From Hydrolagus affinis (lineage: Eukaryota), in the NCBI GenBank assembly GCA_012026655.1, contig JAAILG010001363.1, positions 1 to 64,000 of the forward strand: a stretch of 64,000 nt of DNA. The letters are read 5' to 3'. This document shows, in pieces, positions 21,186 to 47,229 of this stretch. Numbering within the stretch: the stretch's first letter is position 1; the number at the start of each line of letters is the position of its first letter. A program made the translations under genes and the position numbers. The notes under the pieces are model-generated. The model worked only from the letters and a program-made list of their open reading frames with translations. It was not told the DNA's origin and ran no database searches.

Positions 21186-21199
21186 ATTGCTATGGTAAC
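21186..21199. promoter_or_regulatory. Candidate RFX X-box
   Basis: ATTGCTATGGTAAC fits GTTRCCATGGYAAC-type consensus with two mismatches and lies in non-repetitive sequence. Confidence 0.35.
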
Positions 21200-23299: not shown

Positions 23300-23719
23300 G
23301 TAGGCCCTTGTTGGACAGACGAGGCTCTAACTTTACCCATGGGAATATTATTCCCTAAGAGTACCGAATAGCGTCTGCATCACAGTGGAAAATGTCGGTC
23401 AGGTACCTTCAGCCACTGTTTCTGAACATCGAGGTTGTTTGCATAGAAGGGGGCCCCATTCGACTCATTGTGCCATGATCTGCACATTAGTTTGATTCAA
23501 AAGAGGCATGGGGCAAGAAACTCCTGAGGGAGCTAAGTAGAGTGCCACTGACACGATGTTCAGTTCATTATATCCCACATGGTCTTAAGTCAGTGCACTT
23601 AACAATGAGGAATTTTTCATTGTTTTTCTCCATTCTCCATTCTCTCTCAAACCTTTGTCCAATTCCTGCAAAAGAACCGAATGGTCATCTATTGGATCAA
23701 AGGCTACAGCATAATGTCA

Positions 23720-24129
23720 ACTTGGCTCAGTGAGTCAGAATGCTATGATTTTGAGTCCCGTGCAAGGTATAATAGTCTAGGTTGACACTCCAGCGCTGTG
23801 CTGGGCAATTGCTGCATCGTTTGAGATGTTGTACTTTGGTAAATACATTAAAGCAGGATCCCAAATAGCTATTCAAAAGGAGAAGTGACTCTCTCATGGT
23901 GTCCTGACCAACAAGGAATCAAATAAATTTGGTCATTCACTTCATGACAGTTCATGAGACATTGCTGGTGTGCAAATTGGCTGCCGTACTTCCATATAAA
24001 TATGCAGTCTTTACAGCACACTTTATAGGACACTACAATTTATAGTAAAATCTTGTGAAGCGCTTTGAGTCATCACAATGATGTGAGAGGAGCTTTATCA
24101 AATCCAAGGATTATTATTATTATTATTAT
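23720..24129 (+). mobile_element. Old long-form SINE (DeuSINE/SacSINE1-like)
   Basis: cttggctcagtg...gagtcagaa head, tctaggttgacactccag core, gtgcaaattggctgccg body and (ATT)n tail; family name from recalled consensus. Confidence 0.65.
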
Positions 24130-24204
24130 AACAATCATGCTTCTGAATATTCTTTTAGTCGAAGCTTTACAAGTAGTGTCTAAGCTTGTTACAGTGACTT
24201 ATGG

Positions 24205-24478
24205 TAATGATAATCTTTGCATTTGATATCGCGCTTTTCATGTCTTCTAGACATCTCAAAGTGCTTCATGGAATATAGTGTAAAGCGAATTGACTGTATT
24301 TATGTGTGCGAAACGCGGCAGCCAATTGTCTCGCAAACAGTCGTGGATTGAAATGACCAATTTATTATGGTTTACTTTTATTAGTAAGGAAACTTGCCCA
24401 ATTTTTCACCCTGGGCTGGAAATGAACCCAGGCCTCTCGCTTGTAGGGCGAGCGCTCTAACCACTGAACTACAGGACT
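24205..24478 (-). mobile_element. tRNA-headed SINE, near full length
   Basis: Reverse complement: cctgtagttcagtggttagagcgctcgccctacaagcgagaggcctgggttc...aaatgcaaagattatcatta. Confidence 0.88.
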
Positions 24479-25369
24479 TAGCAAGCTTCCACTTGGGGCT
24501 CATAATATTGTATTTGGTCCACTTATTCTATTCTGTCATCCTACCCACTACGCTGCTGCACCAATTCATGAATATTTCCTCTGAGCAAGCAAACCCTCCA
24601 TTTAAAAATGTGACAAGGTAAGAAAAGAAGGTGGAAATTAAAGAAAAATATGAAGGCTCAAAGATTTGTCAGATACGACTGAAAAGAATGAACAATTAAT
24701 AGCCTTCCTGCAAGTTATTATAACCACATCCATTATCACCATGACCTTTTGAGAACTTTATTTCCTGAGAAGCTTGAAGTATAATTTTTCCCTTAGTCCT
24801 CACTAATGCCTTTTAACAGGCTATCTGTCATTTCTGAATCTCCGAATAAAGTGAAAGTTTCCATATCTTAGGCAACGGTGCAGAAGTATGACTGGAGACC
24901 TCAAGACGGTTAAATCTACTTAAAGGCTCATTTTTGTTATACCCGGCGAATATCCATCCCGAAAAAGACTGCACATCAAGAATGAATGTATGACATTAAG
25001 TCATCGGGTTATAATTGAATGAAATTGTGCATTACTTCACGATTGAATCATTAGAATGTCAAGAGACATTTGGAGTATGTGGGATGTGGCAAAACCATCA
25101 CCGGCAAAATCAGCAAGGGACATTGGGGTCTAATTTGCCTTTTTAATGGAATTCATAAGAAGGAAATGACTCTCATATAAGGATTCCCTCTGGTAGGTAA
25201 GTGGATGTCAATCACACCGACCAGATGGGAATGCACACAAACACCATGTACTGTACTTCCGGAGCAGAGTTCCTGAAGGTCATAAAGGAATTTTAATGGG
25301 AATCTTTAATCCAGGAATTTGTGAGGTTGGACAGTGAACGACCACGGATTGTTGGGCAGTAGTAGTAAA

Positions 25370-25757
25370 AGTAATCGCGGCAATTGATTATGGAGCCGTT
25401 TCACATCAGCAGGACGTTCCAAAGGAACTCACAGAATTTACTGTGAAGTACAGAGACTATTTGTAGGTGAACATGGCAGCAAATTTGCACACAGCAGTTC
25501 CCACATATAGCCATGAAATGAATCATCGATTTTAATTGCCAGATTGTTAGTCAGGATATGAGGAGGAGCTGCCTTCTATTTTCATTTAATGTCCACCTGA
25601 TCAGGCAGATGGGATTGTGGTTGAACATCTCATCCGAAACATGGTACTTCAGACAATGAGGTCCACCTCCAGCGTTGTATCAAAGTGTCATTCTAAGGCT
25701 TGAACCCACAGCCTTCTTACTGATGGGTAAGAAGATGACAATGCTACCAGTTTGCTG
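25370..25757 (-). mobile_element. Old long-form SINE (DeuSINE/SacSINE1-like)
   Basis: atggcagcaaatttgcacacagca, tttaatgtccacctga, ttgaacatctcatccgaaa, cttgaacccacagccttct..tgctacca are reverse complements of the long SINE body, core and head. Confidence 0.65.
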
Positions 25758-25769
25758 TCAGTGTTGATG

Positions 25770-26272
25770 CTCATCCAAAACTCTGCGGCTCGTGTCCTCT
25801 CCCGCACCAGGCTCCGTGACACCATCACTCCCACCCTCGCCCGGCTCCATTGGCTCCCCATCCCCCAGAGGATCAAATTCAAAATCCTCGTCCTCACCTT
25901 CAAGGCCATTCACGGCCTTGTCCCTTCTGACCTGCTGACTCCCTACCAACCTGCCGCCCCCTCCTTTCTGCTCCATGTCTCCCACCCGACCGGCCCTACC
26001 ATCGGTGGACGGGCTTTCAGCCTCTCTGCCCTCACACTCTGGAACTCCACGCCACAGTCCTTCATCTCGCTTCCTCCCTTGCCTCCTTCATGGCCGGTCT
26101 CAAGTCCCTCCCTTGCGATTGTGCCTTCTGACGCCCTCCCACCTCTCTCCCTACCCTCTCACCTCTCCTGCACCTCCCCCATGCTCAGGTCCCAAAAACT
26201 GTGACTGTTTAGCACCTTGGGACATCCTCCCGATGTGAAAGGCGCTCTTTAAATATAATTTTGTTGTTGTTG
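25770..26272 (+). mobile_element. L2-type LINE 3' fragment (ORF2 C-terminus plus 3' UTR)
   Basis: ORF 25752..26204 IQNSAARVLSRT..HWLPIPQRIKFKILVLTFKAIHGL..GGRAFS..LWNS is the typical L2 ORF2 C-terminus; (GTT)n tail. Confidence 0.9.
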
Positions 26273-27235
26273 CTGCGCAGATCTGACTTAATTCGCCACC
26301 GACCACTAACCTCCCATCTTCCCCCAACATAAAGGGTTTTCCTTCATGTGTTTATTATCAACTGTAGATTGTATGAGCTCAAGCATTCATGAAACATCTT
26401 GTTCAAGGCAGTGCAATTAATACACAGCAGTTTTCTGTCATTTTAAATTAAACTTCTGAAAACTACAGTGAGTTCTCTATGAAGACTGCCATCATGTTAA
26501 GTATCCAGGCTGAAGTATCCAGGAATGCCAGCATTTCCTGTGGTGTTTCTTTTAAAACAAATCTATTTTGTAATGATTTGAGATCTGAGAAACTATTTCT
26601 GCCGCAGAAATCCAGCAACCTGAACTTACTTTCCTCTGTTATAATTAGGGGTCCATTATTTTATGTTTATTAATTTTCTAATTTTCTCCCCATTGGCAAA
26701 TGTCTGCAAATGATTTGGCCTCCGCCCAACTACAAGCAGGAAGGCCGGCCGCCAATTTGTCCATCATTTCTCCCACTTGATTTTAGTTGAATTTTTGAAG
26801 ATCTTTTCAGCTCTCATAATTTCACCGCCTACATCACATGTGCAGGCAGCACCACTAACATCACTCGTAGAGATGACACAATTATATATTCCACCTTCTA
26901 AAGGTGGGAATACCTCACCTCGCCCGTGAGGCAATTATTATCTTGACAATTGCTTTGCGCAAGATGTGACCTTATGATTGGACTTTGGCCTATTTTGTTC
27001 AAAACAATAAAAAGTGTCAGAAAGAATTGTTTTCCTTTATTTGGGGAAAACTGAAGAATCCGATAAATACCACTGTTTACTGATAAAATTGAAAACTGTG
27101 AAGCCCTGTTATAATTGTACAGCAGTAGCTGAAACATTTACAGTTCTGCACATTTTTCCTAATGTATGTTGGACTTAGAATGCCTTTTGTTAGATGAACC
27201 AGAAAATTACATTTTCATAAGCTTATCTTTCTTAT

Positions 27236-27546
27236 TAATAATAATAATTCTTGCATTTGATACAGTGCTTTTTTCACCCCTTCTAGACGTCTCAAAGTGC
27301 TTCACAGAATACACTGTAAAGTGAATTGACTGTATATTTGTGGGCAAAACGAGGCAGCGAATTGCGCACAGCAATGTCCCACAAACAGTCATGGATTGAA
27401 ATGACCAATTTATTATTGTTTTTTTTGAGGGATTAATATTAGGCATGTGGAGTAAGGAAACTTGCCCAAGGTTTCACTCTGCCTGGAATTGAACCCAGAT
27501 CTCCCGCTTGTAAGGCACATGCTCTAACTATTGAGCTACAGGACTC
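27236..27546 (-). mobile_element. tRNA-headed SINE, full length
   Basis: Reverse complement aligns end to end with 40696-41005. Confidence 0.9.
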
Positions 27547-30190
27547 TGTAACACCTTATCATATTTTCAAGACTCGCAAAGGGCTTCACATGATTTTACT
27601 GTGAGCCACAAGCAGAAATGCTATCAACTGAGCCAGCCTGATCCCTGAATCCAATGTTTCCAGGGGACTGTGAGAGGAAATCCAGATAGCATTCCTGTTC
27701 CTGGTCCCTCTTCCACTCTCGGTATGCGTATGTTTGTGTTTTGTTTTTAAATTTAGTATATCCCAATTACTTTTTCTATTGTTCTCCCTATTGGCAAATA
27801 TTTCTCTGCAAACCATATGGCCTCTGCTCAACTGCAAGTAGGAAAGGCTGGCCACCAAGCTCTTAAACCTTCTATCCAAAAGAAAAAAATATTCAACGAT
27901 AATATTGTTGTGGTGCTTACGTCCTGTAATGCCTTGAACACTGGCATGTTTATTGAGCTACATTGATTTTCATGTACACACATTTAGGTAATTCACACAG
28001 AAACTTGCCTCGGGGAAATTCTAATTCCTTTAAGCTGCTCTCAAAGTGGAAGCGGGGGACGACATGCTATTTGTTTTCATTCTAATGCTTCAATACAGTG
28101 GGGAACAGGATCATTAACAAACACAGAAATACTGATCTGTTTGTTTCAAGGAACCTACAGCCTCCAGAGCTCAATGTTTCACCCGTAGTTTACTAGGAAT
28201 TGGGGCATTCAGGGAGAAGGTGTCCTCCACGCATGTGTTAAATGTTATTGCCAAGGGCGGTGCTCTTTAATTTTCTAATTTCTCTTTTTTTTCACTCGAG
28301 GTAACTGTTTGGCTACCTCAATGTTTCCTGTCGAGGTAACATATAGCTGGAAGGGAAGGAGAACCCTAATCATCTAGTCACAGCCTGTTAATAGGAACAA
28401 ACTGCTCTGAATGAGGCCTTCTCATTGAACAGATCATTCTATTATGCTAGGAGCAGCCTGTGCTTCGTGTCACACAAAGAGCGCTGCTCAGCAAGCCGAG
28501 GTGCTTGACAGTGATGGGTGGCTTTTTGTGAAGTCAGTGCCTTTATTTAAAAATAAAACCCTGAGATTGCCTTTCATTGTATTGTCGCACAGTGCTGACC
28601 GACACACTTCAAAGGCCCCAGACTTGGCATTGTCTTTGCATTGGTGTAAAACAGAGAGTGAGAGTGTTTGCCCCCGTGAACTTGAAACTCTCTAGGGCCT
28701 ATTGGAAATAGCATTTTAAAAGTGCCTTACCACAAGACACCTTAATTGCCACGCACCTAAAGACTGCATCATCCAATGTTGCAACAAAACCAAATGTTTT
28801 ACCGTGATTATGAGCAAGTAACTCTCATTTGGCCCACATATAGAAATACAGTCGCACTGCTTTACAGTATATCCTATGAAATACTTTGAGACATCTCAAT
28901 GGAATGATGAGGTGCTGTATCAAATGGAAGGATTGTTATTATTTATTTTACCACAGTTGAGTGTCAACCTTTGATTATGAACGCAAGTCCCCAAAACGGT
29001 ACAAAACAATTTATATGTGATGCTTCCAAGCTAGAACATTCTGACCCTCGGGTGGAGATGCTACCAACTGAACCGTGGGAGACCTGGTCAGTAATCTCAG
29101 CCGAACCTACATAAATTATGCTAAAAATCCCTCCCTGTTTGCACAACTCTTCTCCAAAAGGAGAAACAAAACAACTTGCATTGTATTTCTCCGTCCTGAC
29201 AGATAATCCCTTTTTTAAGCATTAACATAGTTTTGAAATCATACAAGTAAACAGAGGTGCGCTGCAGCTGGAGATAACAATGTACCCAATGTTTCCTTCT
29301 CTTTTGCTGAATTCAAAAGCAAGAGGTTGGTTGTTAAGGAGAAGGGGTGGGGGTGGTTGTCAATAAAACTGCTACATGTCAATATCTTAGCTTAATTGAG
29401 TGTTGCACAATTGATCTCTTTAGCACAATGTAATATTCTGTGTCTAGGTGCCAAACTATCTTTGACTAATTTTTCATGTAAATTAGGCAATTTGCATGAA
29501 ATCTATACATTTCTGTTCTGGCCTGTCAATGCTGCTTTAAAAAATAGGAGAGTCTTTAACATCAAACACGGGTAGAGGATATCCATCTGTTTGCAGTGTT
29601 TGCCTGGAGCCTTTTCACATAATGCAAAATACAAATTGTGGCTCTTTAATTGTTACCCCGCAGAAAGAGTGTAATCCTGACTAGAATTCATCTACGTACA
29701 TATACATTATATAGACACATACAGTAATGTGTGCATATACAAATGATAGTGAAATACCAAACCTGTAATGTAAATAATGAATTCTATTATGGTTGATATA
29801 GTATTCATGGTGGTGTTCAAACTTTTTATTTCCTAATAACCTGTAGTAATAGAACAGCTATGCCAATTACTGTAGTTTTAAGTTCAATCTCGGGAAGAGC
29901 TCTCCTGTATTGATCCAATAGTGGCTTCGGGATGTACTTTGGCGTAGTTTAAACACATCCAAAATAATAGCAATACAAGAAGGCTGTAATGGGGAGCATG
30001 GTTTCTTAACCTGAATTTCAATCAGTGCTGCTGCTTGCAAAGAAGTGCCAGGCACTAGAAGTTGACTTGTCTTTTGAAAACTTCCAAAAGGAAAGGTAGA
30101 AGCTCACAGTGAAATTTGGGAGAAATCTCGAGTTGATGACTTTAGAGCGCTAATGAAACGGTGGGGACTCAAACCCTCTGTAACTAGTTT

Positions 30191-30822
30191 CAGCTCACAC
30201 AGTGTGATCAAGCACAAGGCAAACATTGCAGTTTCTTTAGAGCGATTGGAACAAAGTTAAAAACACTTTGGGGATAAAATTTCCACCCAGGTCTAGAATT
30301 GCTCTTTTTTCGTAGTATTTCAGATGTCCAGAATGTGACAAGCAGGTTGAATTTTGATGCCATTTTTCTGTAAATTCTTTTAAGAACTACAGAAACCTGG
30401 CTTCAAAGTAAAGAACTGAATTAATCAATTGTCAAAGTAAATCCTCACCCAGGTGGTATTTCCCTCTGTTGTAGTTTCTTGTTGTTTTACTCTGTGCAGC
30501 TCTGTAGTCTATATTCAAAGCATGCAGTTGAACATTTGTGGTTCTCATTCATTCAGTGTAGTGCGTTAGTGCATCTAAAATGTACAAGTGTTTGCAGAAT
30601 ATGGTGTGTATTTGTTTTTGTATAGCCTCAAGCTATATTATTGACCATTCAAAACCTTAAATATAGCACCAAATCCAGCAAAGCTGGACCACTGAATTTT
30701 TGACGGAATGTCCCGCTCATGAACTTCAATACAGTTTCGGAGACCAACATTGCCTTTTTGGAACTGAAAGAAAAACTGAATGAAAAATGTTTGCCTTGTG
30801 CTTGATCACACTGTGTGAGCTG
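30191..30822. repeat. Perfect 37-bp inverted repeat (30191-30227 / 30786-30822) with 558-bp spacer
   Basis: CAGCTCACACAGTGTGATCAAGCACAAGGCAAACATT and its exact reverse complement, checked base by base. Confidence 0.92.
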
Positions 30823-31044
30823 GGACATTGCTGTGCGTGACTGTGCCGCCCAGTTTGCCTACAAATAAACAGTCACTCCATTTCACAGTGAATCCATTAA
30901 TAAGTATCAGCCTGGCTCGGTTGGTAGCATTCCACCGCCATGTGAACTGTCTTGAGTTCTGACAAGGAATTATTCTGAAAATAATAGAGAATGCACTGCT
31001 GATTTTAATCTAAAAATGAGAAACACATACTGTTCTGTACAAAC

Positions 31045-31405
31045 TGGCTCAGATGATAGTACTTTCAGGTTGTATTTCAGGCCCTGTAACTTGATACAGG
31101 GAGCACTGCTGTATAACATTCAGATGATATGTTTTAAACTAAGTTCTTGTCTGCTGTTCATGTGGATGTTGAAGATCCCATTATTCGAACAGAGAAGGGG
31201 GTTTCTCCCAGTGCCCTTAACAACTAATCCTCCGAATGTTTGGGTCATTCACTTCATCACTTGGTTGTGACATTGACAGGTGCAAACTGACTGCCGCGTT
31301 CAACTGCAACTACACAGTCTTTACAGTAAATCCTGTGAAATACTTTGAGACATCCTACCAATGGCAAAGACACTACATGATATGCAAGAATGATTGTTAT
31401 TATTC
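31045..31405 (+). mobile_element. Old long-form SINE (DeuSINE/SacSINE1-like)
   Basis: tggctcagatgatagtact head, tgtggatgttgaagatccca core, gtgcaaactgactgccgcgtt body, degenerate ATT tail. Confidence 0.6.
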
Positions 31406-32774
31406 ATAAAAGGCATCACATTTAACATCATTCTTGCCAATAATTGTTACAGTTAATGATTAATAGCTATGCATTAAAAAAAAATTCAACCGTTTACTCA
31501 AGGTCAGATTTGTTAAAGGAAAATTATAGGACCAAAAGAGATCTTAAGAAGTGATATTGGATGTGGAAAAAAAAGGATTTCCTCATATCTCAATGAACTA
31601 AATTCTACTTGCCTTGTTTTGCTTTATTAAGGTAGGGAACCAAGGTATTTTCACTTCCAAATTTCAACATCACATACAAAATGAAGTCAAGGGCACTGTA
31701 TCACAATGTGTATTTATTAATATATTTATCAATTTGTTATCAGTTATGTTCAGATGTAGCACAGATTAAATACATAGTAAACTCCCATTATAAGCCATCT
31801 GAAGCTTGCATGTCAAAACAGTGGCTTTTTGTTTTCTGCAATGAACCGTCATTATGGCCCTTTTGGAATGAACCATGACAATTTAGTACCAAATTATAGA
31901 CAGGTTTGCGCTATGCGCCCGCAGCTACAGAGCACTGGAATGAGCCTGTCCAACCTCGTTTCATCTCGGACCTGTAGTGCCATCAGACAGTAGAGACTTT
32001 CAACCTATCAGTCCAAATAGGAATCAAATCCAGGCCCTGAAGGTGAAAGGTCTTTCCAATTCAGTCCATTACTACTACAGCAGAGTTTATTTTTCTCCAC
32101 ATATCCTGGATGATACTCAGCCAAATAAAATTGGTCATTCGTTTCATGGCTTTTTGTGGGACATTGCCGTGCGTGATTGTGCTGCTCAATTTGCCTACCA
32201 ACAAACAGTCACTCCATTTCACAGTGAATCCTGCAAAGTGCTGTGAGACATGAAAAGGCACTAAACTGAATGCAAGGAATATAATGTTTTTCTTATTCAA
32301 TGCCAGACTGAAGAAGATTGTGTAAGGATGGCACTTCACTTCAGTAGCTATAATGAAACTGTTCAGTAATGAAAGGCTAAATCCCACTTGTATATTTTGT
32401 TGGCTTGCAATATTATTTTTCTTTCATATAATTGAAGATAAATTTTGTAGAATGTTCAAGTGATGCAAAAGATGCCACAAATGAGCTGAATTGCCTTCTC
32501 TTTGCACCTGAAGCTGATATTACTCATATGCTTAGCCTTGCGGCCGGCCATTCCCTTAAAACTAAGGTTGTGCAGAATATTGATGAATTCAACTCAATCT
32601 TCATTTGGAATCTGATTTTCTACAATTTTTCAACATGGCTATTTGTGGAACTTGCTGACGCAAAAGGCCGACACGTTTTCCTGCAAAACCAGTCACTACA
32701 CTATGGTTATGACAAGCAGAGTGCTTTGAGATATTTCTATCAAGCTCTCAAGAGATATATTTTGAAGTCCGGTT

Positions 32775-33015
32775 AATATGTATTTTGTGAACATGGTAGC
32801 CAATTTGCACACAGCAATGTCCCACAAACAGTAATGAAGTGACCAGGGGATTGTCGGCCCAGAAACTCTGTTCGCTTTTCAAATAGTGCCATGGGATCTA
32901 TAATGTTCATTTGAACAGATGGATAGGCCCTTGAATTAAAGCCGCATCTGTAAGACAACTTCTCCAAAAGTGCAGCATACCCTCAGCATTTGCTTAGAGT
33001 GTCAGCCTAGACAAT
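32775..33015 (-). mobile_element. Old long-form SINE fragment
   Basis: atggtagccaatttgcacacagcaatgtcccacaaacag...aatagtgccatgggatct...gagtgtcagcctaga. Confidence 0.65.
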
Positions 33016-34160
33016 GTGAATTAATGGATCTGATGGAATGGTAATGGACAAGGGTGGAACCCATTAAAATCTGTTCAAATTAAATCACTGAACCCCTGAA
33101 TCTGACTCAATTACTTTCAAGTCCCTACTTGAAGCTTCAACCCCAAACCTTTTTATTAAAAGGCGAGTGTGCCATCAATTGATATCATGATACCCCTTGA
33201 CGGTTCAACTTTGCAATGCAATTCAAAGGGAAAGAAGCTCTCCCCTCCCCCCCCCCCCACCCCCCACTACCTCCAACTCCATTTCCTGGGCCTGGGACAT
33301 TTTTCCAACATATTAAAATATCCATTCAGCAATTTCAATGTGCCAGCATTAAATCACTGATACTGCTGGTATATGAGAGGAACTAGGATGTAAGCGTCAA
33401 GCAGGGAGCCAAAATTTGGCACTGGAGAGTGATAAAAGTATGCAGATGAAATTATTTTTACTTGAGATGTTTGATGCAGGAATCTAGGCGATGAAAGGCG
33501 ATAAGGTGATCACAAATATTTACAGTATACATGAAACAGATAAACTTGACATGGAATTTAGAAAGGTTCTCTGCAGATTTTCGGGTACCTAAATCATCCA
33601 ATTCATGCAAACAAAAACAGTTTGTCTATTTCTGTGAAGTGGTGAAAATGTGCAATGAATAACAATTAACAAATGAAAAAACAGTGGTCAAGCAATTGAG
33701 TTAGATTTAGGGTCTCAGTGATTTAACTTGAGCAGATTTAATGGGTACCCAATTGTTCATTATTACCGTTCCATCAGACCTATTAATATCTGACAGTGAA
33801 TAATCTGGGTCCTGATGATGAGTGCTGTCTATTTATTTCTCTAATGGAGCAGTAATGATGGTGGTTATTATTCATTGCAACAAATTGGTGTAAAAGTGAG
33901 GTTAATTGTTAATGAAGAGGCTTTATTGGCTCGTCAGGAATGTAATGAATTGGAGGCTGGACTATCAGATACTGAGCATGGTATAACATAATGTAATCTT
34001 TAACAAATGAAAATGGTAAAAGTAACTAATAATAGAGATCCAAAGGAGAATTGAGTTTCTCCCAGTGTACTAGCTGTCGGAAAATTGGCACCCAAATATT
34101 ACTAGTCTATTGTTTGCAGATGCAATACATAGAACTAACATCACCCTCCATATCTCTTAT

Positions 34161-34490
34161 TCCTGTAGCTCAGTGGTTAGAGTATTTGCCTTTACAAGGT
34201 GAGACCTCTGTTCGAATCCAGGCAGGTCAGGGCGAAACCTCGGGCAAGTTTCCTTCCTCCACATACCTAATAATAATCCCTCCAAAAAAGACAATAATAA
34301 AATTGGTCATTTCAATCCACGCCTGTCTGTGGGACACTGTTGTGCGCAATTGGCTGCCGCATCCCGTCCACAAATATACAGTCAATTCACTTTACAATTT
34401 ATTGTGTGAAGCTCTTTGAGATGTCTAGAAAATGTGAAAAGCACTTTTATCGAATACAAGGATTATTATTATTATTAATATTATTATTAT
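34161..34490 (+). mobile_element. tRNA-headed SINE, full length
   Basis: A-box tagctcagtgg, B-box gttcgaatcc, shared body, (ATT)n tail. Confidence 0.9.
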
Positions 34491-35437
34491 CGGAGGTGCT
34501 ATGGTTCAGATGCAAAGTTCAACCAAGGCCTGTCTCATTAACGTATTCTTCTGGTGGATGCTAAAGATCCCACGCATCATTCAAAAATACAGGAATTTTC
34601 TCAGATTCTAATGGTTCATGGCTGTCCATGGGATACTTCTGTGGGCAAAATTGATATCATTTAGTTCCATAATAAAAGTTACTCTAGTAATATCCAACTG
34701 TAAAGCAAATCCTGTGAGGCACTTTGAAATATTTTGACTCAAGCTGGTGGTTTAAAATCTCACACTCTTCTTTATTTGGCCCATTGAGTCTGCATGGACT
34801 CTCATAGCAAAGTCTTATTTTAATTCCACAGCCCTGTGATAGCCCCATGCCAATTCTAGGCTCTTATCTTTCATACACAGTACTTGTCTCCTTCGCTCTT
34901 GAAAACCAAAATGGACTTTGTCTCTACCTCTGTACTTGCCAACAATTTCAATGTGCTATTTTGAGATTCCAAAAGATCAACACGGTATCTGAGAGTTAAA
35001 GGTTATTGTATCACAAACCAGCTCTAGGTCCATGGTGTTCTGTCATGAATAGATCCAAGCGAGTTGTCTCTGTATTCTGGAACAGAATTATTCTGTAAAT
35101 AATAGACTGCACTTTCAATTTCTAACTCAAAATTAGCAAGACAGATCAGGGATGTTGTCCATTCATAGAACTTCCTGTGAATTGATAAGATCTTTGTTGG
35201 CAACCGTGTCAGACTACATCCTGCGCTTCTATGCAGATTCAGCTATAGAACTGTATTAAAAAAGTTACACTGTCTTAAATACAATTGTAATCTGTTTCTT
35301 TCATGATCACACCAATGTTGATTGCTCCTGTTGAATGTTAACAGCTCAGATCATTTGCATGTGAAAAGCAGGAATGCAGTAATTTCCTTGCTCTGCGTGA
35401 TATTGTTCTGAAATGTCTATGTGTTTTATTTCTCAAG

Positions 35438-35464
35438 CACACTTTCTGGATAAAATAGTCAAAG
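35438..35464 (+). CDS. TENM3: Teneurin-3 alternative 27-nt microexon between EGF7 and EGF8 (AHFLDKIVK)
   Basis: ttttatttctcaag|CA CAC TTT CTG GAT AAA ATA GTC AAA G|gtactg; phase 1-1; 8/9 identical to the mammalian Ten3 site-A insert AHYLDKIVK as I recall it. Not in ORF track. Confidence 0.92.
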
Positions 35465-35552
35465 GTACTGTATGCCTTTTCCTTTCTTCTTGTTTGTTGT
35501 GCAGTCTTTGCACATAGAGTAAATAAGTAAACAGATACCTAACCCTCTATCG

Positions 35553-35575
35553 TCATCTCACTTTCATCCATTCAT
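35553..35575 (+). promoter_or_regulatory. YCAY cluster (candidate NOVA-binding intronic splicing enhancer)
   Basis: TCATcTCACttTCATCCATTCAT: five YCAY tetramers in 23 nt, about 90 nt downstream of the 27-nt microexon. Confidence 0.5.
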
Positions 35576-36253
35576 ATTTCTGGGATCGATAACGGGTGCA
35601 TTAACAAGGGCTTAATAGTGAATTATATCAGCAACACTTTTATCAGACGGTGTATCGTACAAGTCAATTAACAGAAATAGAATTGCACTCTTACACATTG
35701 TGGTACCTTTGTTAACCCACATACTGCAATATTTGAAAATTGCTGAAATGTAATTGAGAACAGTTAGTTCCTGGTAAGCACTATTACTGTAGTTACTGCT
35801 GGAAAAAAATAGGTCACAGAATACACCGTTTTTAAAGAGTAATTTTATCAGTAAAGAAGAAATCAATTGTAACAATGTCAAACATTGTTTTGAAGCGCTG
35901 CGTGAAACTGTTAAGTGGCTCAAAGCAAACTTGATATACGTTTTTAACGATCATGGCACCTCATCTCTCATTAATAGTATTTGTGTGCTTTAACAGCATT
36001 TCTGAAATATATATTCACTTTGAAAAAGTGTTTGTGGTGTTGCATTGCCAAACCTGGCCTATTTAAGATTAAAGCTTGGATAGTAGACCAGTGTTTCTGC
36101 GTTAAAAGGAGCAGCAGGGATTTTATTTAATTCACTCACATTTTTGTGATTGCAAGCATCCTTTTTTTTAATTCCATTTTTATAAATACAGATTCTGGAT
36201 GTGCCATTACTTTTTAATTGTGTTTCCAAATTTTTCCTCCTTGTCCATAATAG

Positions 36254-36274
36254 CAGACAAGATAGGATATAAAG
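36254..36274 (+). CDS. TENM3: Teneurin-3 alternative 21/18-nt microexon between EGF7 and EGF8 (ADKIGYK or DKIGYK; alternative start 36257)
   Basis: tttttcctccttgtccataatag|CAG|AC AAG ATA GGA TAT AAA G|gtaaag; tandem TAG/CAG acceptors; phase 1-1; matches the recalled second Ten3 site-A insert DKIGYK. Not in ORF track. Confidence 0.88.
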
Positions 36275-39219
36275 GTAAAGACAAAAGCCCCAGGGAGATT
36301 GTTATGAACTATCCCTCTCTGCTCTCTGTCTTCAAGCACGTCATTTAGTGTTTCCATTTTAGTTATTTTTTTGTTCATTTTATTTCCAATGCTCATTTTA
36401 TCTCTGTTCAGTCTTTTTATGTTCACTGTGGTTCCTCTGATATTACGCTTCTACTTGTCTTAAGTAGTTCGACGTGCAAAGCTATTGTTTCTGTTGAAAC
36501 CCTTGTCTGTCCAGTTCCGTCCATCTGCAGCCTTGAATTTGTAAAAGACTTAGGTGCTCTGAGCTTTGTCTCTTGTTTCTTCGCCTTTGCTTATTCCTTT
36601 AAAAGAAATGTGAGTTTTAAATTTCTTATTTTCTAATAAGTTATAGCTGTAAATGATCTTACTCTATGTTGTTCATCTATTAGCTACAATAATTTCACAT
36701 GAATAAGCTCCAATTTGCACACCCCGCGACAGAGCGACAGATTCCATCTCTGAATTTTGGGTGCAGAAGACAAACATGGGTCTTGTGTGTCCTTCCGAAA
36801 GTCAAGTGTCTCTCGTATTGGCTAATTCAAAACTAGAGAGAGAGACTCTTGACACTTCATAGTGCATTGCAAAGAAAGTATACGACTTAATCTGTGTGAA
36901 AAAAAATGAGATGTCGTGCAAATCTTGTGGTGTGAATATAGCAGTAAGTTGGACATACATGATTATCTTTTTGGAAGTCCCTTGTTATAATCATGTCTCA
37001 AACAATTCTATTGGGATCATGTTTTTCAGCTGTAAATAGTCGCTTGGTGCTTCGCAATAGGTTTCCAGATCTCTGAATGGTAATTTATGTAAATGGCAAC
37101 TTGACAAATTTAGTGTGATGGACACCCGAGCGAGTAAATAAGACATTTAAACATGTTGGCAAAAGGAGTATTTGAATCAATGTTTGTTTTTGGAGGCCTT
37201 TGAGGAGACAAGGAGAGAAATAATAAGGCTTTAAGGAAGGAAGTGACACGGGATTGGGGAATGGTTCTATGAAGCCTCAATCAATGGTGAAGCAAAGTGA
37301 ATGGGGAGCAAGTATAGACCGTGTGTGGGAAGAATGTAAGGTCACCTTCAACAAAAAGATCTTAACAAGGATTCTGAAATTTCTGGATTCCGAAATAGAA
37401 CTTGGTGAGGTTGAGGATTACGAGCAGAGCTCAGAAATGCTGTGCCTTTTAGATATGGCTATTTCCTGCAATTTCCCTATGTATTTTTTTTTAAAGTTTC
37501 CCTATTTTCTTCCAGGTAATCATTGTATGTTCCTTCGTTTAAAAAAAAAAAAAGCTGCAGTACAGACAAAGATTATCTTGGAGACCTGAAATCAACTCGC
37601 TGTAATTAGCGTTTTTCGGTTTGTTTTTTATCTTATTCTCTCCTCCCCTTTCATTTGTTTGTCTTCCTGTCTCACGACTTGGCCATGGATTTCTTCCAGG
37701 CCTTTGCAGATGCCGTGTGAGACATTGAGTCCTCCGCCACTCTCCCCTCCCTTCATCTGTTCAGGAAATTGCCCATCGCTTCAGATGCCCTCAGATAAGA
37801 TCACGACACCCGAGGATGCAACCTGCATACTGCTACAACAACAAATTGAATTGAGACAGTGCCTTTCACATCGGGAGGACATCCCAAGGGATTGGATAAT
37901 AAAGGCTTTGCACCGCAGCTGAGGCCCGGAGTCTGAGCTAGCTGGGGCCTGGAGCTGAAGAGAAATGGAGTGGGGGTGGGGGGAAGGGGGGGAAAAGATG
38001 TTACCCAAGCTCACAAACCTATTTTGTCCAAATTGCAGTCTTAACAAGGCTTTATTGCAATACAACATTTTTCTTTTTTTTAAGTAATTTACTATTGTGC
38101 ATCTTCTTTGTGCAAGAAAGCTTGGAAGTTCTGCACAGGATGCAGAATGGATTAGGTCATTCCACAAGAAGAGTGTTCACTTGTTGGGAATTAGCAAATG
38201 AAGGGCAGACTACGTGGAAAGGAACCTCTTTGCCTGCCGTTGCACAACAGCCAGGAGTTGCAGGTCAAGCGTACCAGCGCCTTCGGACGTCATCTCGACG
38301 TGAAAAGCGCTGTATAAATGTAACTTTTGATTGAACGTTTGATTGATCATCAGTCAAAATGCAGTCAGTGCTAGACTTAGCACTGTGCTGCATCACCAAG
38401 CTCAGTAGACTATTTACTCCGCATTCTCCCCCCACCCCCCCACTCCCACTTACCACACATACTACAGGCCTTTTAACTCTTCTAAAACAGAGGCTTGGAC
38501 AATTTGGGGACACTTCTGTCCTGGAATTCATTTGCACTGGGACTCGGGTTCAAACTGGTTAAATGAGTTTCACTTCGATTTTGTAACAGGCATCAAACCA
38601 CAAGTGATGAGTTCTGCTCTGTCTAGATTGTTTTTGAAACCGGATCTGACAGTTAAAAGGACAGCATTCTGTACCAATACCCAGAGACACACTTGTTTCC
38701 CTACCTCCAAATTCCAATTGATATTAGTTAGGTTTGTCTAAATTGTTCTTCCTGATGCTAACCGCCATTTTCAGCAGGGAAAGACGGTCGTAATAAAGCA
38801 AATTTGAAGTCAATCCTTCCATGATGTTACTCACATTTCTTTCTATTCCTGTTCTACTTCCACACTATCTCTATAACAGTTGTTGGAGCAGTAATCCTCA
38901 GCCGCCTCCCAATAAATTATCCTAAGAATTGGGGTAATACAAAATCTGACACTTTCCTGAATAAAAACCTGCTTATTATGGGATAATTTTCACCAAAGGC
39001 TGATCGCAAGATTTTTTTCAGATGATGAAGGCCCTTCAGTCCATGTCATCCCTTCAGGATACCCACCCCATCACAGCATCAAGCTTTGTTTTAGTTCAGT
39101 CAAGTGTCCTGGTCTCAACAGGACACTGGACTGGTTTAAACCCTTCCTGGAAACCTGTATCAGTCATTAATTACTCTCTGAATAAATACTTATTTGACCA
39201 TTTTATTCTCCAGTCATGG

Positions 39220-39425
39220 TGGAAACAGATTCGATAACAACTTTCAAAGGGGAATTGGATAGGTGCTTCAAAAGGAAAAAAAAATCACAGCGGGTAAAAA
39301 GTGGTAGCTAGGTAGGTAGGTAGCTAGGTAGGTAGGTAGGGTGTAGGACTGAATGGGTAGCTCTTCCAAAAAGCCAGCACAGAGCACGATGGGCCGAATG
39401 GCCTCCTTCTGTGCTATAATTTTCT
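39220..39425 (+). mobile_element. Degraded CR1-type 3' fragment containing a (GTAG)n microsatellite at ~39305-39340
   Basis: actttcaaaggggaattggataggt...cacgatgggccgaatggcctccttctgtgcta. Confidence 0.7.
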
Positions 39426-39735
39426 ACAATATCTCTTAAAACCCTCACGTGAATCTTACGTATTGAAAGGTGTGCATTTTATTTCAATTCCTACTCTTCT
39501 AACTATTCTGCATTTTGTGGAAAATGTAAGGTGTTTGTCCTTTCAAAGAGGAACGAATGCTCACAGTTTCCATTGTACAAGGGCACAGTTTATCCATGTG
39601 AAATTATGATTTGCGTGCTTCTGAAAAGGCTTGTAAGCTGCTATTCTTTCATTCTTGTATACCTGCATAATAACAGAGCAGAGCAGAAGTGGCGCGTTTG
39701 GTATTTATTTTCTGTGTCCCTTTTATCATCGACAG

Positions 39736-39882
39736 AAGGTTGCCCTGGACTCTGCAACAGTAATGGAAGATGTACCCTCGACCAAAATGGCTGGCATTGC
39801 GTCTGCCAGATGGGGTGGAGAGGAGCGGGATGTGACGTTGCTATGGAGACTATCTGCTCCGACAACAAGGATAACGAAGGAG
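39736..39882 (+). CDS. TENM3: Teneurin-3 coding exon, EGF repeat 8 and start of cysteine-rich region, 147 nt
   Basis: Acceptor cgacag|AAGGTT; donor GAG|gtaagc; [24 protein letters not shown]...DNKDNEG in ORF 39531..39902. Confidence 0.96.
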
Positions 39883-40695
39883 GTAAGCGCAAAGAAATGT
39901 AAGCACTTCACCTGTGGAAACATCAGTGGAGGAAACCTCCTGAATGAACAAAACCTCCTGCATGAACAAAAGCAAATTATGGAACGGTCGCAGGCATTTC
40001 AAAGCTGTGTAGCATCCTGATAGCAACAGGCCCGTAATAGAGGCGTGATTGGGACAAACCATTCAGCTTAACAGCAAAAAAGGAATTTAGGGTCAACGTG
40101 TCATCCCCAACCTTACTCCTCGCACCTCTTTACCTCTCCACCTCATTCCTTTCCACCTGACTTCACAGTCCACCTAAAAACCTACCTCTTTGACTGCGTC
40201 TACGCTCAACATCTGACCTTATCGTTGTGAAGCGTCTCGAGGTACAAGGGGTTAAAACACTGATGTCAGGAACCAAATGAGTCAAAAAAAAACACCAGTC
40301 CCCTGTTGCCAGCAATCTATGTCTCTTTAATAGTATGTAGCAATATTTTTTTAATGAACTTCTTGATGCTTTGGATCAGCTTAACTCTGCTTGTAGGAGA
40401 TAACATAATGAGAATCTAGTCATTACTTTTAAAGACCTTAAACATTAAAAGAGAGGTTTAATAATGTCAACTGTTCGTTACAGAGTGAGAGGTCTTCAAT
40501 CATTGTTTTTGATGCCTGTTACAGAAGAACTCACCTCTTATCTGTGGGGGGTGTTTTTTTTTTAAAAAAAGGTCACTTTTTAAGGCTTTTTACAAACTCA
40601 CTCCCCTGCAGCGTTCATAGATTTCAGTGGTGTGCTGGGCTATGAACAAGGAATCAAGCTTGCATGGCATTTCTCTGTCAGAATGCTGTCGTTTT

Positions 40696-41005
40696 GGAGT
40701 TCTGTAGCTCAGTGGTTAGAGCACTCGCCTTACAAGCGAGAGACCTGGGTTCAGTTCCAGGCAGAGTAAAACCTTGGGCAAGTTTCCTTGCTCCACACAC
40801 CCAATAATAATCCCTCAAAAAAACAATAATATTTGGTCATTTCAATCCAGGACTGTTTGTGGAACACTACTGTGTGCAATTGGCTGCCACATTTCGCCTA
40901 CATATATACAGTCAAATCACTCTACAGTATATTCTGTGAAGCGCTTTGAGACGTTTAGAAGATGTGAAAAAGCCCTACATCAAAAGCAAGGATTATTATT
41001 ATTAT
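40696..41005 (+). mobile_element. tRNA-headed SINE, full length (best-preserved copy)
   Basis: A-box TAGCTCAGTGG, intact anticodon-like arm CTCGC-CTTACAA-GCGAG, B-box-like GGTTCAGTTCC, tail aagcaaggattattattatt. Confidence 0.92.
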
Positions 41006-43194
41006 CTTGTTATTTTCCTGCTTTGCCTGTTTGGCTTTATTATAGACGGGTTTCCCTGTACAAACGATCCCAGGAGGTGCACATCCACCTCAGTAAGAAA
41101 CTTGATCGTAACATTAATTTAAGAAGCAAGAACAAAGCACAATCTGCAACAGTGGGCATGTGCCCAGCAGCTTGGCTTCAATCAGTAACACCGAGCAAAG
41201 CTCCAGAGTAGCTGCTCAGAACCGACTGTTAATTTGCTCATTTTCCATTCTGCTACGGATGAAAATATAGCATTTATTTGCAACAACTGTTCTCACGAGC
41301 ATAACCCCATTTAGCTTAGAGTCTGTAGTCCCTTATGATAGAGTGTTGAAAGCAGACTTGGTGTGAAAGAAGGTTGCATTTGTACTTAACTTGCCAGCTT
41401 AAAGGGTGTCCCATGAAATAAGTTTTAAGCTATAGCGCGAGTGAGCATGAAACCGCAGTGCAGGCCTGTGCTATCTTTCGCGAAGAATACTGTTTAGTGT
41501 TTGCATCCCCCAGATAAAATAAAACCATTTACTTCATGACTGCATGCGGGACACTACTGTACAATCCACATTCACAGTAAATCTTGTGAAGCATTTTGAG
41601 GCATGTCGACCACATAATTGGGTCCACTTCAAAACAAGGATTACTATTTCTGTATTCTAACTCCCATCTCCCAATGCCCTCACAGAAAGTTATAAAGTAA
41701 AAGGACATGAAAGGTTGAAACAGTAGAACAATTTGAATATTCTTGATATTTAATTTTGTATTCCTTTACCTTTGACTTTAACTTCATCTTCAACTGTTAT
41801 GAATAGGGGAAATACATAGATGCTAATAAATTGGGTAGCAAGTTGGGAGTTAATCTATATTTAGGTTTCCTTCTTTGTGCAATCAATAAATCTGCAAATA
41901 TGTAGCATTCTGGTACTAAGGAACATGAAATGAAGCTTTTAAAAATGAATAGGCAAAAGAAAACTTCAAACACGCTTCCCATCAGTCAGAACTTAGTAGC
42001 ATGCTGTGAGTTTTTCATTAAATACAATGTGCTGGTGAAGTGATTAGCTGGTGAAGTTGATGTCTAGTGTTCAGTGCTTTGATGGACGACATGAAGCAAA
42101 ATAGGAATAGCAGTTATTTTTGAAGTACAATGGATGGAGTTTAATATATAGAAAAATCCTAAAGTCAAGGCAAAAATAGGAATAAGAGGTGTAATATATG
42201 TTTTGGCAGTGGAAAATTAATTCTCTTTGAACTTTGATTTGAAGTTGTGATATCCATAATTTAAGAATCCCATTTTGCATGTTGCAAAGTACGTTGTTCG
42301 TTCCCATTTGCATTCACATATTTAGAGGGTGTACTTACTTAGATATCTTTTCCTTACAGCATTCCTGATCTCGGACCAACTTTAAATTAAAAGTAATGGT
42401 CGAATCACTCTTGACCTTCAGTTTTAAGAATATTACAAGGGTCATCGTTAGTGTGTTTGAAGCATTCTATCAACTATTTAAGTCACATATAACCACTACC
42501 ACTATATTTGTTTGGAAGAAGGTCCCAACCATACAAACAGAGGGTAGTTCCCACCTTAGATCAGTTTAATTTATAATGACCTCAGGCAATAGTAACATTG
42601 AAATATTTTGTAGGTTTATTAACTTAGAAATATGTGTAATAAAGACAATAACCTGCACTCATGTACGTTAGCATCTTTCAGATCAACATCCCTCAGAGTT
42701 TAGTCAGTAAAATTCATTAGAAAGAGGCGAATACTGTAAAATAGGCTAACATGGCAGCTAATCTTTTTCTAAACAACGAGATGAGCAGCCAGTTACAGTG
42801 CGATGATCCATTTTACTTCCACCTGAAATGACAAGGCAGATAGAACCTAATTTATAATGTAATCAGAAAAAGTTTGCTCAGGTTGCACTGATGTAAAAGC
42901 TATATTTTTTTAACATTGGTTTCAATCAACTGAGATACAAAGAACAAAAAAAAGTCATTGCTTTTGTGTGTAACGCATCGTTTTGCAGACCAGAAATATC
43001 TAATTTTACCCACTCCACTGTTTGGCCTAGGGGTGTTCCCAACCCTGTAGAGAAATGGTGCATCTGAATATAAGACCTGACAAGATATACCTGTTAACCA
43101 TGATACTTTCATTGTATGCCAGCTATCATGCTCCACTACGCCTGCATAACCACTTAATAATACTTTTTAGAATTTTTAATATAAGATACAAATA

Positions 43195-44220
43195 CAGTGA
43201 AAGCCCGTTTATCCGGCACCCTCGGGACCTGGCCAATGCCGGTTAAACGGCATGCCGGATATTCGGAAAAAAAACCAACTCAAAAAACATTTACTTTTTT
43301 CTAAACATACCATATTAATAATAGACTAAATAATCACAGAATATTGTATGGATACTTAGCAATACAGCAATACATATCGATTACAGTCTATAAACAGGGC
43401 ACACAATCACAAAGCAAACTTCTACAGTGACGGACGGTAGTGGCTTAACTGTCGTTTTTTCCTCTCTTTTTTCTTTCTTTCTCTCCCTCCTTCCCTCTCT
43501 CTCTTTCACACACAAACTCAGTCAGTCTGGCATCTCAATGGCTCCAAACCCAACCCCCCTCTACTCCTCTCATTTTCTATCTAAATTAATCAACGTTCCC
43601 CCTCTCCCCTCCTCTCCCCCACCTCTCTCTCCCCCTCCCACTCCTCTCTCTTTCTGCCCCCCTCTTTCCCTCTCTTTCTGCCCCATCCTCTCTCTCCCTC
43701 CCTATTTCTCCTTCTCCCACCCCACTCCCTCACCAAAACAGTGTATAAACCCACAATACAGTCAGGCTACACAGGCAATATGTAGTATCCGNNNNNNNNN
43801 NNNNNNNNNNNNNNNNNNNNNNNNNNNNNNNNNNNNNNNNNNNNNNNNNNNNNNNNNNNNNNNNNNNNNNNNNNNNNNNNNNNNNNNNNNNNNNNNNNNN
43901 NNNNNNNNNNNNNNNNNNNNNNNNNNNNNNNNNNNNNNNNNNNNNNNNNNNNNNNNNNNNNNNNNNNNNNNNNNNNNNNNNNNNNNNNGAGGGAGACGAA
44001 AAACCGACAGCGCTGTTTTAAGAGGAAAAACCAGAAGTGCCACTACCGACACCATTCGGAAATAATCGTACTGTACTCTTGTGCGACAATCAACTCATTA
44101 AATGTGCCACCGTGATTGTGGCGGATAAGATCCGGTTGTTCGAATAGGGACCTTTTTTTTGAGGTGCCAGTTATACGGAAGTTACGGTTGATCTGGTCAT
44201 GGATAAACGGGCTTTCACTG
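43195..44220. mobile_element. Tc1/mariner-superfamily (pogo/Tigger-like) DNA transposon or MITE
   Basis: Perfect 20-bp TIRs CAGTGAAAGCCCGTTTATCC (43195-43214) / GGATAAACGGGCTTTCACTG (44201-44220), TA on both sides (43193-94, 44221-22); no transposase visible; interior interrupted by N gap. Confidence 0.88.
43792..43988. other. Assembly gap (197 N)
   Basis: Run of N, following a CT-rich tract at ~43460-43735. Confidence 1.
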
Positions 44221-45339
44221 TATATGGTGCTCATGCAGTGGGTTGAAGGACATTTGTGAACACCATAATTGAGTGCTGCACCCCTAGCTTATAGGTCACA
44301 AAGTTCAAATCAAAGGGCTGCCTGTCACTCACCTATGCTTGATTCAGTTGAATGTATTTACACTAAAGGAAATACTGTGCAACGTAGTGAATACAACATT
44401 TTTATGATGGCATCCAGTCAAATTGGGCATAAAAATAATGGGACATTACACTCCGAACTCAAGTGTGGAGCCTCTGAAAATAGGTCAAGGAGTATCCATC
44501 AGTGAGAAGCAGATGAACAGTTTCACTGTTGGGATGGCAATTTTGACTTTCTGATCCATTTACTGTAATAATGAGGTGAATCACAATGAATTTACCACGT
44601 TTTAATTGAGTTATTCTCTACTGAGATAGCCCGTTAAACATAATTGTTTCTGCCCGAATGCAAATGTCTGCAGGAATGTTAAATCTATTATTAATCAATG
44701 GCTTTGCAGAAATATTAGTGGTTTATTTACCATTTGGATCTGTAGCCAAGTTAATACTGCAGTGAGCTAATGTTATGCAAGGATTAAATAATTAATATCA
44801 TTGCCAACTTTAGCAAAGAAATATCCAACTGGTAGTTTTGTATACTCAACCACATATACCTGTGTTCCCACATTAAATTCACATGTTTGTTCCAGTAACA
44901 GTTCCAATAGTTCCAATTCCATATTAAGGAGCTGATCCATTTACTTATTTATGAAAGCTTTCCAAACAGTTAGCTATCTGCACCAAACTCATAAATAATC
45001 CTCCCACTCAGTTGCTGTTAACCCTGCTCGTCCAAACCCTAAAGGATTGGGTTATCCTCAAACGATAATCAGGAGGAAGCTTGCTAGAAAGTGCTTCCAA
45101 TTCCAAGCTATATATATTGTTTTGACTTGTTAAACTTCAGCAGTGCTCAAACACACATTGTAGGTACATCCTTCCAGGAGAGAGAGTACCTCCCACTCCA
45201 GTCACAACAACAACAACAAAATTAAATTTATAGAGCGCCTTTCACGTTGTAGAGACGTCCCAAGGCGCCTCAGTCGCAAGGAAATTTCCATGTGTATGGG
45301 GCATACATATGTGCAACTCTCAAATCTCTTAAGTATGTT

Positions 45340-45745
45340 CCTCGTTCTGATTTTCAAGGCCCTCTAGGGCCTTGACCCACCTAACTCTCTGACCTGCTGA
45401 CCCCCTATCAACCTGTCCACTCTCTTCATTTAGCAGTCTCCGCCCTGCTCCATGTCTCTCACACGGTCTGTCCTGCCATCAGTGACTGGGCTTTCAGCCT
45501 CTCTGCCCCCACGCTTTGGAACTTCATCCCACAATCGTTCGCCTTGCTCTCTCCCTTACCTTCTTCAAGACCCGTCTCAAAACCCTCCATTTCGACCAAT
45601 CTTTCAGCCACCCCCTATCTCTCTGCCCTCCTTCATCCCAACCCTGCACCACACCCATTCTCATGTCCTAACCCCTGACTGTTCAGCGCTGTGGGCTGTC
45701 TGCCCGACATGAAAGGTTCTCTACAAATGTAATTTTGTTGTTCTT
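45340..45745 (+). mobile_element. L2-type LINE 3' fragment
   Basis: Aligns by eye with ~25890-26270 (tctgacctgctgaccccctatcaacct...gggctttcagcctctctgcc...aatgtaattttgttgtt). Confidence 0.85.
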
Positions 45746-47229
45746 GGTGTTATGATGTTTGGTTTCTGTGTATGTGAATCACCCACCTGACCAATCATCC
45801 TTCCCATCCACCCACCCACCCCTCCTCACATCGGACTGCTTTCCAATTCACATGCTTGAGAAAGAACACCCTTGTGAACCCGACAGGCAATGTTCTTACT
45901 GCCCTTCCTATACAAGCTAAAGGCAGCAGGTGCAGCAAGACTGATTTCATTTAGAACTTTTACATCCGGCAGAGAAAGATTTTCATCCTATTTGAACTCG
46001 TGTTCCAGAACTGAAAACACAATTCTAATTCAATGAGCTGTCACCAACAGGAATCCCTAATTCTATTCTACATAAGGTTCAACTTCCTTTCTATTGATCT
46101 TACTGAGGCCTGATTGGGAATCAACAACAACATCAAAATTACATTTATAGAGCACCATTCATGTTGGGAAGGCGCTGGATACCATACTTGTTCCAGATAA
46201 AACTGCATTTCAGTTCCTCAATTATTTTATCCTGCTCATAACCTTGGACTCCAACTGGCATATGAACCACAGAGAAGCAAACTTTTCATCGTAGGGTCAG
46301 TATTGAAACGTCAACACTATAAAAGTGAACCTTTATCACTTTACATCAATGCGGGATAAGCTCAATTGAGTGTTGACACACCTTTCAGAGAAGAAAGAAT
46401 GACATTATTCTCAAAAATGTCATCCCAAATGATTGATTCAGAATGATATATTGTTAAAAAAAAAACTTTGGGCTGGCACTTTTTTACCCTTTAACCAGCA
46501 AAATAACAGCTTGGATTTATATAGCACCTTCCATGGAGGGTAATGTCTTCGAGCACTTCACGGTGGCAGAGTTGGACACTGAGCAAGCGAGAAATGGGAA
46601 GGGTGACATTTTATTATAGGGTAGTAGAAGTAAAAACGTTCCCATCTGAGCAAGTCCAGAATAAGAAAATGTATTCTGTCCCAGTTTGTGTCAAGTAGCA
46701 TCAGATCAGTTCTTGCAACATGACACAACAGTGACAGCCAGTGCACCCACTCCCTCCAGCCAATTTTCATTCAGTTCAGCCGCTCAGTCTAATTCCCACT
46801 GCTGGGACTGCCAAAATCAATAGCGCTAAATCTCATATGAATATTTTGATTCTGATGGCAGCACACTTAGAAGCTGTAGGGTTCACTCTCACAGTTTATG
46901 ACATTATGTTGTCCCATGTGTTATAGCCTGGTAACTCACTCCTGTGTGTATGTTCTTCGTATTACAAATGAATTGTCACTATTCCTTGGAGCTTTCCGGA
47001 ATGATTTCTATGCATGGTTCAACAATCTCCACACTACAAATGAATAGTGACACTTTACAATATTATAACCTATTAGTACACCGAAGGTTATCATGCAGTG
47101 GTTCAACAGCTGCTGTGAATGTTTTGTTGGGTCTGATGTATAATGGTAAACGTTACTGCAGTAGTGAATACCATATCCTCACTAATTGGGACTGGCCTAA
47201 TTGGGTAACTGGAAACAGTGGATACATCA

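Follow-up and report, generated by a model that had tools for sequence, protein, structure and literature searches.

A probable splice insert A microexon in a teneurin-3 gene of the chimaera lineage

The TENM3 locus and its microexons

The window, by which we mean the whole 64,000-nt stretch of DNA analysed here, contains part of a teneurin-3 (TENM3) gene. The intron between the exons for EGF7 and EGF8 holds two short exons, referred to below as microexon 1 and microexon 2. The features of the gene are as follows.

1861..63271, + strand: TENM3 gene segment, an 11-exon model of 707 aa with no stop, assigned by tree and PDB search
1861-2075, 7010-7220, 7533-7634, 8096-8290 and 15761-15961, + strand: other TENM3 exons, part 1
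23114..23299, + strand: upstream constitutive exon, EGF6-EGF7, phase 1 at its end
23300..39735, + strand: EGF7-EGF8 intron, 16,436 nt, containing both microexons
35425..35437, + strand: weak 3' splice site of microexon 1, reading F-I-S-Q in the exon frame and ending in AAG; FISQ abuts AHYLDKIVK in a TENM3 model of Albula
35438..35464, + strand: microexon 1, probable TENM3 splice insert A1, 27 nt, AHFLDKIVK, phase 1-1, acceptor AAG, donor AAG/GTACTG
36254..36274, + strand: microexon 2, 21-nt form, ADKIGYK, made when the upstream TAG in the tandem acceptor TAGCAG is used
36257..36274, + strand: microexon 2, 18 nt, DKIGYK, phase 1-1, acceptor CAG, donor AAG/GTAAAG
39736..39882, + strand: downstream constitutive exon, EGF8, phase 1 at its start, best PDB match mouse Ten3
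53296-53512, 56306-56425, 59597-59858 and 63004-63271, + strand: other TENM3 exons, part 2

The first-pass annotation had named the host gene teneurin-3 and supposed the animal to be a chondrichthyan, and both proposals are borne out. In a maximum-likelihood tree of 24 rows built on the constitutive exons, which has no TENM2 row and leaves out Heptranchias TENM3 and Polypterus TENM4 because their alignments are short, the window falls inside TENM3 (100/100) and inside the chondrichthyans (99/96), as the sister of Callorhinchus milii (100/99). In PDB searches, exon 63004-63267 scored 160 bits with mouse Ten3, 124-129 with Ten2 and 120 with Ten4, and the EGF8 exon (39736-39882) scored 95 bits with mouse Ten3 versus 74 with Ten2. 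The EGF6-7 exon gave no PDB match at E <= 1e-8, probably because a short query rich in Cys has difficulty reaching this cut-off. Constitutive-exon identity over the 707 aa is 96% to Callorhinchus TENM3, 88% to Hemiscyllium and 86% to Mobula; by paralogue it is 78-96% for TENM3, 61-66% for TENM4 and 56-59% for TENM1. These comparisons identify the gene as a holocephalan TENM3, from a species other than C. milii.

Some smaller observations concern the constitutive exons. A possible tandem acceptor, CAGCAG, precedes the EGF2-3 exon (window 8093-8098), and another, CAGAAG, precedes EGF8 (window 39733-39738), where use of the second AG would remove one residue; that E at the start of EGF8 is missing from one UniRef Callorhinchus model. 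The EGF4-5 exon (window 15761-15961) is absent from Callorhinchus TENM3 X3 (P0105), and Heptranchias X6 (P0178) aligns poorly over the same region, which could reflect exon skipping or a gap in the models.

Microexon 1 reads ...ttctcAAG/CACACTTTCTGGATAAAATAGTCAAAG/GTactg or, with its fuller upstream flank, ...ttttatttctcAAG/CACACTTTCTGGATAAAATAGTCAAAG/GTactg. Since both flanking exons are in phase 1, its 27 nt insert AHFLDKIVK without a frame shift, and its length and AG/GT ends place it in the microexon class, defined as 3-27 nt in the part of PMC10987577 available to us. The phase 1-1 microexon originally proposed at 35438-35464 in a 16-kb intron is thus present as AAG, 27 nt and GT in an intron of 16,436 nt, and the junctions claimed with it (23299, 35438, 35464, 36254, 36257 and 39736) are all AG/GT boundaries. 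Spliced in silico over the 11 constitutive exons, the skipped form and those with 27, 27+18 and 27+21 nt are all stop-free. The AAG acceptor is unique in the gene model, CAG being found in 11/11 constitutive exons, and the donor has 5/9 bases of the consensus CAG/GTAAGT, a score that ties with constitutive donor 8290 as the lowest in a comparison from which donors 7634, 15961 and 63271 were left out. The 3.3 kb around both microexons (34482-37831) form the intron's longest stretch without window-internal repeats, which cover 17% of the intron, and may be taken as a weak sign of constraint.

The unusual acceptor has a possible counterpart in a teleost. A TENM3 model of Albula runs through the intron, with FISQ immediately N-terminal of AHYLDKIVK; in the window, FISQ precedes one of the 3938 + strand AG sites, which is the acceptor of microexon 1, a figure that overstates the rarity because pyrimidine-rich acceptors favour F and S. 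As a phase-1 exon needs CAA for the Q codon, the same AAG ending is implied in Albula, and we infer that the weak acceptor is conserved there. A longer match to the Albula intron flank (EMS...FISQ) was not significant by itself, the site falling outside the top 8 in a tblastn search with 36 upstream residues.

Microexon 2 sits 0.8 kb downstream of microexon 1. Its shorter peptide, DKIGYK, is identical (6/6) to part of the 15-residue inserts of gerbil, ferret, cattle, paddlefish and Rhinoraja, and the longer ADKIGYK is identical (7/7) to that of Mobula (P0052), with the same form in sturgeon (P0055), inserts in these last two being of 16 residues. Among 172 named rows, from queries that favoured rows with microexon 1, microexon 2 never occurs without microexon 1, and the fetched rows of TENM1 and TENM4 showed no second exon of the DKIGYK type.

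Counterparts in mouse, chondrichthyans and ray-finned fishes

In mouse Ten3, the available part of PMC11058771 gives insert A as AHYLDKIVK between EGF7 and EGF8, and that of PMC5851990 numbers it as residues 741-749. This is the mouse peptide that had been named in the first reading of the window, and it is found in PDB 8R50 as well; the insert is absent from 8R54. The mouse A1 form (PDB 8R50/8R51/9IGS; A0 = 8R54) and microexon 1 agree in gene, length and position (I740-E750) and in 8/9 residues, as expected from the proposed orthology with insert A, the single difference being Y743 in mouse and F in the window.

The closest counterparts are chondrichthyan. NCBI Callorhinchus milii TENM3 X3 (P0105) has AHFLDKIVK, so that the two species share an identical peptide (9/9) although their constitutive exons are ~4% diverged. 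The Mobula hypostoma models X5/X7 (P0053/P0052) have AHFLDKIVKADKIGYK, a match of 16/16 that includes the 21-nt second exon, and Rhinoraja longicauda X2 (P0056) has ALFLDKLVK followed by the 18-nt form, with F in common with the window. NCBI 'isoform X' records such as these are computed models. The microexon had been described as hidden, but because its peptide already stands in the Callorhinchus and Mobula models the finding is not new: microexon 1, its F peptide and microexon 2 are all known from public chondrichthyan annotations.

The ten chondrichthyan TENM3 rows comprise four with the microexon, three without an insert and three, UniRef Callorhinchus models, with a peptide like that expected from reading through the EGF7 donor. 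For Callorhinchus, model P0105 carries the insert and P0172 lacks it, and the true-shark rows fetched (n=2, Hemiscyllium and Heptranchias) are insert-less isoforms. Read-through past the EGF7 donor in the window (23300-23325) would code for G-R-P-L-L-D-R, and no GT lies 24 or 27 nt downstream of that donor. The peptides at this position in the UniRef models, GRHTLDRL or GRAGTGTM, are probably aligner artefacts that imitate the microexon or the Ten2 insert.

All four insert-bearing chondrichthyan TENM3 rows have F at insert position 3, and the Y-to-F change is therefore not peculiar to this copy, as had been thought. Our rows were the named ones from the best 120 of 1107 and best 120 of 1531 matches, to queries that favoured insert-bearing proteins; with that bias, 126 of 172 named teneurin rows have some linker insert, 35 have none and 11 could not be parsed. 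Inserts that begin with A occur in 124/192 named rows, with Y (67), P (43), S (6), F (4), N (3) or H (1) at position 3, and among those 124 rows F is seen only in chondrichthyan TENM3. The change is, across these models, a chondrichthyan TENM3 trait, seen in the holocephalan and in both batoid genera, and by parsimony it would extend to sharks proper.

In ray-finned TENM3, insert A reads AHPETYVQGERIGFK in zebrafish and its relatives, AHSLEPSVRGESLGGYK in Denticeps, AHNPDIRVK in trout and AHNLDKLVK in gar (rows P0075, P0119, P0021 and P0107). The sequence has diverged strongly in these fishes while the length is roughly kept, which fits a spacer role, and its poor conservation in some teleosts (zebrafish AHPETYVQ) indicates that the exact sequence is not universally constrained.

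Judged from sequence, we put at about 0.9 the probability that microexon 1 is a genuine, alternatively spliced orthologue of insert A1.

Proposed function and alternative readings

What is available of PMC11058771 reports that both splice forms are expressed in mouse, that insert A is predicted to be helical, is poorly resolved and is proposed to be a spacer, and that the A0B0 form shows no homophilic clustering while insert-bearing forms cluster. By analogy, the nine residues of microexon 1 would form a short spacer, probably a helix, and raise EGF6 out of the YD-shell/ABD groove. The freed EGF8 would pair with the ABD of the partner subunit, extending its beta-sheet, and the resulting compact dimer would permit homophilic adhesion; the part of the gene that codes for the ABD surface is beyond the window. 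Together the two microexons would allow EGF7-EGF8 linkers of +0, +9, +15 and +16 residues; the PDB matches include no solved structure of the 15- or 16-residue states. We consider it likely, on this analogy, that microexon 1 works as in mouse.

The F residue bears on this question. Simulations of the mouse R2579W mutant, in the part of bioRxiv 10.1101/2025.02.28.640769 available to us, describe a hydrophobic pocket formed by Y743/L744/I747/W769. The window retains E718, L744, I747, L764 and W769, with F743 in place of Y, so that the hydrophobic face is preserved, and the hydrophobic role of Y at this position is most likely filled by F. The alternative that survives best accepts the exon as alternative and supposes that F743 gives the chondrichthyan TENM3-A1 dimer a stability or adhesion measurably unlike that of the Y form, as might be expected from the place of Y743 in the simulated pocket and from the restriction of F to chondrichthyan TENM3 (4 of the 124 A-initial rows, against 67 with Y). 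However, Y to F is a conservative change that keeps the aromatic ring, N, H, P or S is tolerated at this position in other lineages, and the mouse insert is itself a poorly resolved, proposed spacer; a distinct F form is accordingly improbable.

Quite unlikely is a reading in which a genuine exon is included constitutively in this lineage, with no splice code at all. Insert-less TENM3 models in Callorhinchus, Hemiscyllium and Heptranchias speak against it, with the qualification that gene finders can miss microexons, as do the weak splice sites and the expression of both forms in mouse. We suggest instead, by extension from relatives, that transcripts would differ in whether they carry microexon 1, and that its inclusion would rise as neurons differentiate. 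For the zebrafish tenm4 paralogue, the PMC12626420 supplement lists RT-PCR values at five time points between 12 and 72 that start at 0 and climb to 0.46; we take them to be inclusion levels, with time in hours post fertilisation.

Like the neural microexons (3-27 nt) regulated by SRRM3/4, microexon 1 falls in this size range, preserves the frame, has a weak 3' splice site and lies in a cell-adhesion gene. A mark of that class is a UGC between branch point and AG, with a UC-rich tract upstream of it. In microexon 1 no UGC is close to the AG: none lies within 40 nt of its acceptor, the nearest being at -44 and -49. According to bioRxiv 10.1101/2024.09.17.613571, UGC is found in only 74-79% of the exons that depend on SRRM3/4, which can do without it, and in the PMC12626420 supplement the paralogous tenm4 exon has No under both UC repeat and UGC and is classed as non-canonical. 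The + strand carries TGCATG 20 times in the window and 4 times in this intron, including a copy at 35356-35361, 82 nt upstream of microexon 1. We take TGCATG to be an RBFOX-type motif; noticed after the fact, the copy at -82 is a weak candidate for a splicing signal.

Slightly less probable still is that the match arose by chance, or that the exon is a decayed relic which this species has ceased to splice. The weak AAG acceptor and the 5/9 donor would suit a relic, and the intron contains 659 stop-free AG-(3n, <=51 nt)-GT candidates, so that splice-site shape alone proves little and the evidence lies in the peptide match. Stop-free AG-27nt-GT candidates were scored against the mouse insert, in the intron and in 2000 dinucleotide shuffles of it. 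Among 37 such candidates in the 16,436-nt intron, microexon 1 scored 8/9 and the runner-up 3/9. The best score in the shuffles was 5/9, reached in 9/2000, with 6/9 in 0/2000; when the splice-site requirement was removed, the maximum over 300 shuffles was 6/9. For microexon 2, DKIGYK scored 6/6 against the gerbil insert and 0/2000 shuffles exceeded 4/6. A relic or chance match is also hard to reconcile with the 9/9 identity to Callorhinchus, which exceeds the 96% of the constitutive exons, with an intact microexon 2 in the correct order 0.8 kb downstream, and with the seeming conservation of the weak acceptor in a teleost.

Finally, the similar inserts of TENM1 and TENM4 and a tree with no TENM2 row might suggest that the gene should carry a different label (TENM1, TENM2 or TENM4), but its place in the TENM3 clade, its PDB scores and its identities by paralogue, all given above, make this very improbable indeed.

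Age of the insert and other features of the window

Taking microexon 1 as the orthologue of insert A1, we considered its distribution among paralogues. Homologous inserts stand at the same position in TENM4, as AHYLDKVVK in zebrafish, bichir and bamboo shark and AHYLDRVVK in rodents, and in TENM1, as AHYLDVVVK in bowfin, AHYLDAVR in rat and AQHLDNVVK in a TENM1-like protein of whale shark, with a further TENM1 case in eel. The 27-nt tenm4 exons given in the available part of the PMC12626420 supplement are identical to the window at 22/27 nt in zebrafish and 21/27 nt in mouse. The mouse Ten2 A1 insert, GRQTAGTET (PDB 9G2H/9G2F), fills the same place in the linker with nine residues of unrelated sequence. 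A reading of this nine-residue offset in the Ten2 PDB entries as the same microexon was ruled out by the unrelated peptide, and TENM2 is therefore not counted among the genes that share the microexon. Because GRQTAGTET starts with G-R, like the read-through of the EGF7 donor, it is probably an extension at the 5' splice site.

In the part of PMC6428715 at hand, the four paralogues are dated to the root of the vertebrates, and the two genes of jawless fish are modelled as a 1/4-type and a 2/3-type. An insert common to TENM3 and TENM1/4 would have arisen before those duplications, and the microexon thus probably predates the vertebrate teneurin duplications. The evidence supports an age at least that of jawed vertebrates. 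The jawed-vertebrate origin put forward in the first-pass annotation therefore holds as a minimum, while the homologous inserts in TENM1 and TENM4 take away its standing as a date of origin. The matches listed (the best 120 out of 1107 and the best 120 out of 1531) include no lamprey, hagfish or invertebrate teneurins. On balance we favour a history in which the AHYLD-type exon existed before the duplications (TENM1/3/4), the Ten2 nine-residue insert is convergent, and the DKIGYK exon is an addition specific to TENM3 that had become fixed by the time of the jawed-vertebrate ancestor, which would give a linker code of 0, 9, 15 and 16 residues.

In a literature search that covered few subscription papers, we found no paper on the paralogue-wide history of the insert or on a chondrichthyan TENM3 insert, and the strings DKIGYK and AHFLDK had no matches. 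That some neural microexons have stayed conserved between shark and human for 450 million years is stated in the accessible part of PMC10987577; that of PMC12868881 has teneurin only in its references, and that of bioRxiv 10.64898/2026.09.05.749416 has no mention of it. The site-A splice option, which in mouse affects dimer architecture and neuronal recognition, would on sequence grounds be intact in the earliest-branching jawed vertebrates, and the tandem second exon and weak AAG acceptor both appear to be old. The result is of use for annotating this genome and as a small evolutionary footnote, and would not surprise a specialist.

Other features lie in the surrounding introns. An assembly gap of 197 N occupies 43792-43988, in the intron that follows EGF8. 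LINE-like reverse-transcriptase ORF fragments, presumably of CR1/L2 type, occur in introns at 8440-8781, 56566-56823, 61398-61922 (- strand) and 47209-47643. tRNA-like sequences are found at 40698-40769 (+ strand), 27474-27545 (- strand) and 24415-24472 (- strand), with Rfam scores of 51, 36 and 34 bits, and ARAGORN calls a tRNA-Val(TAC) at 40699-40768. Both - strand copies fall within repeat intervals present several times in the window, so all three sequences are probably heads of a tRNA-derived SINE rather than tRNA genes.
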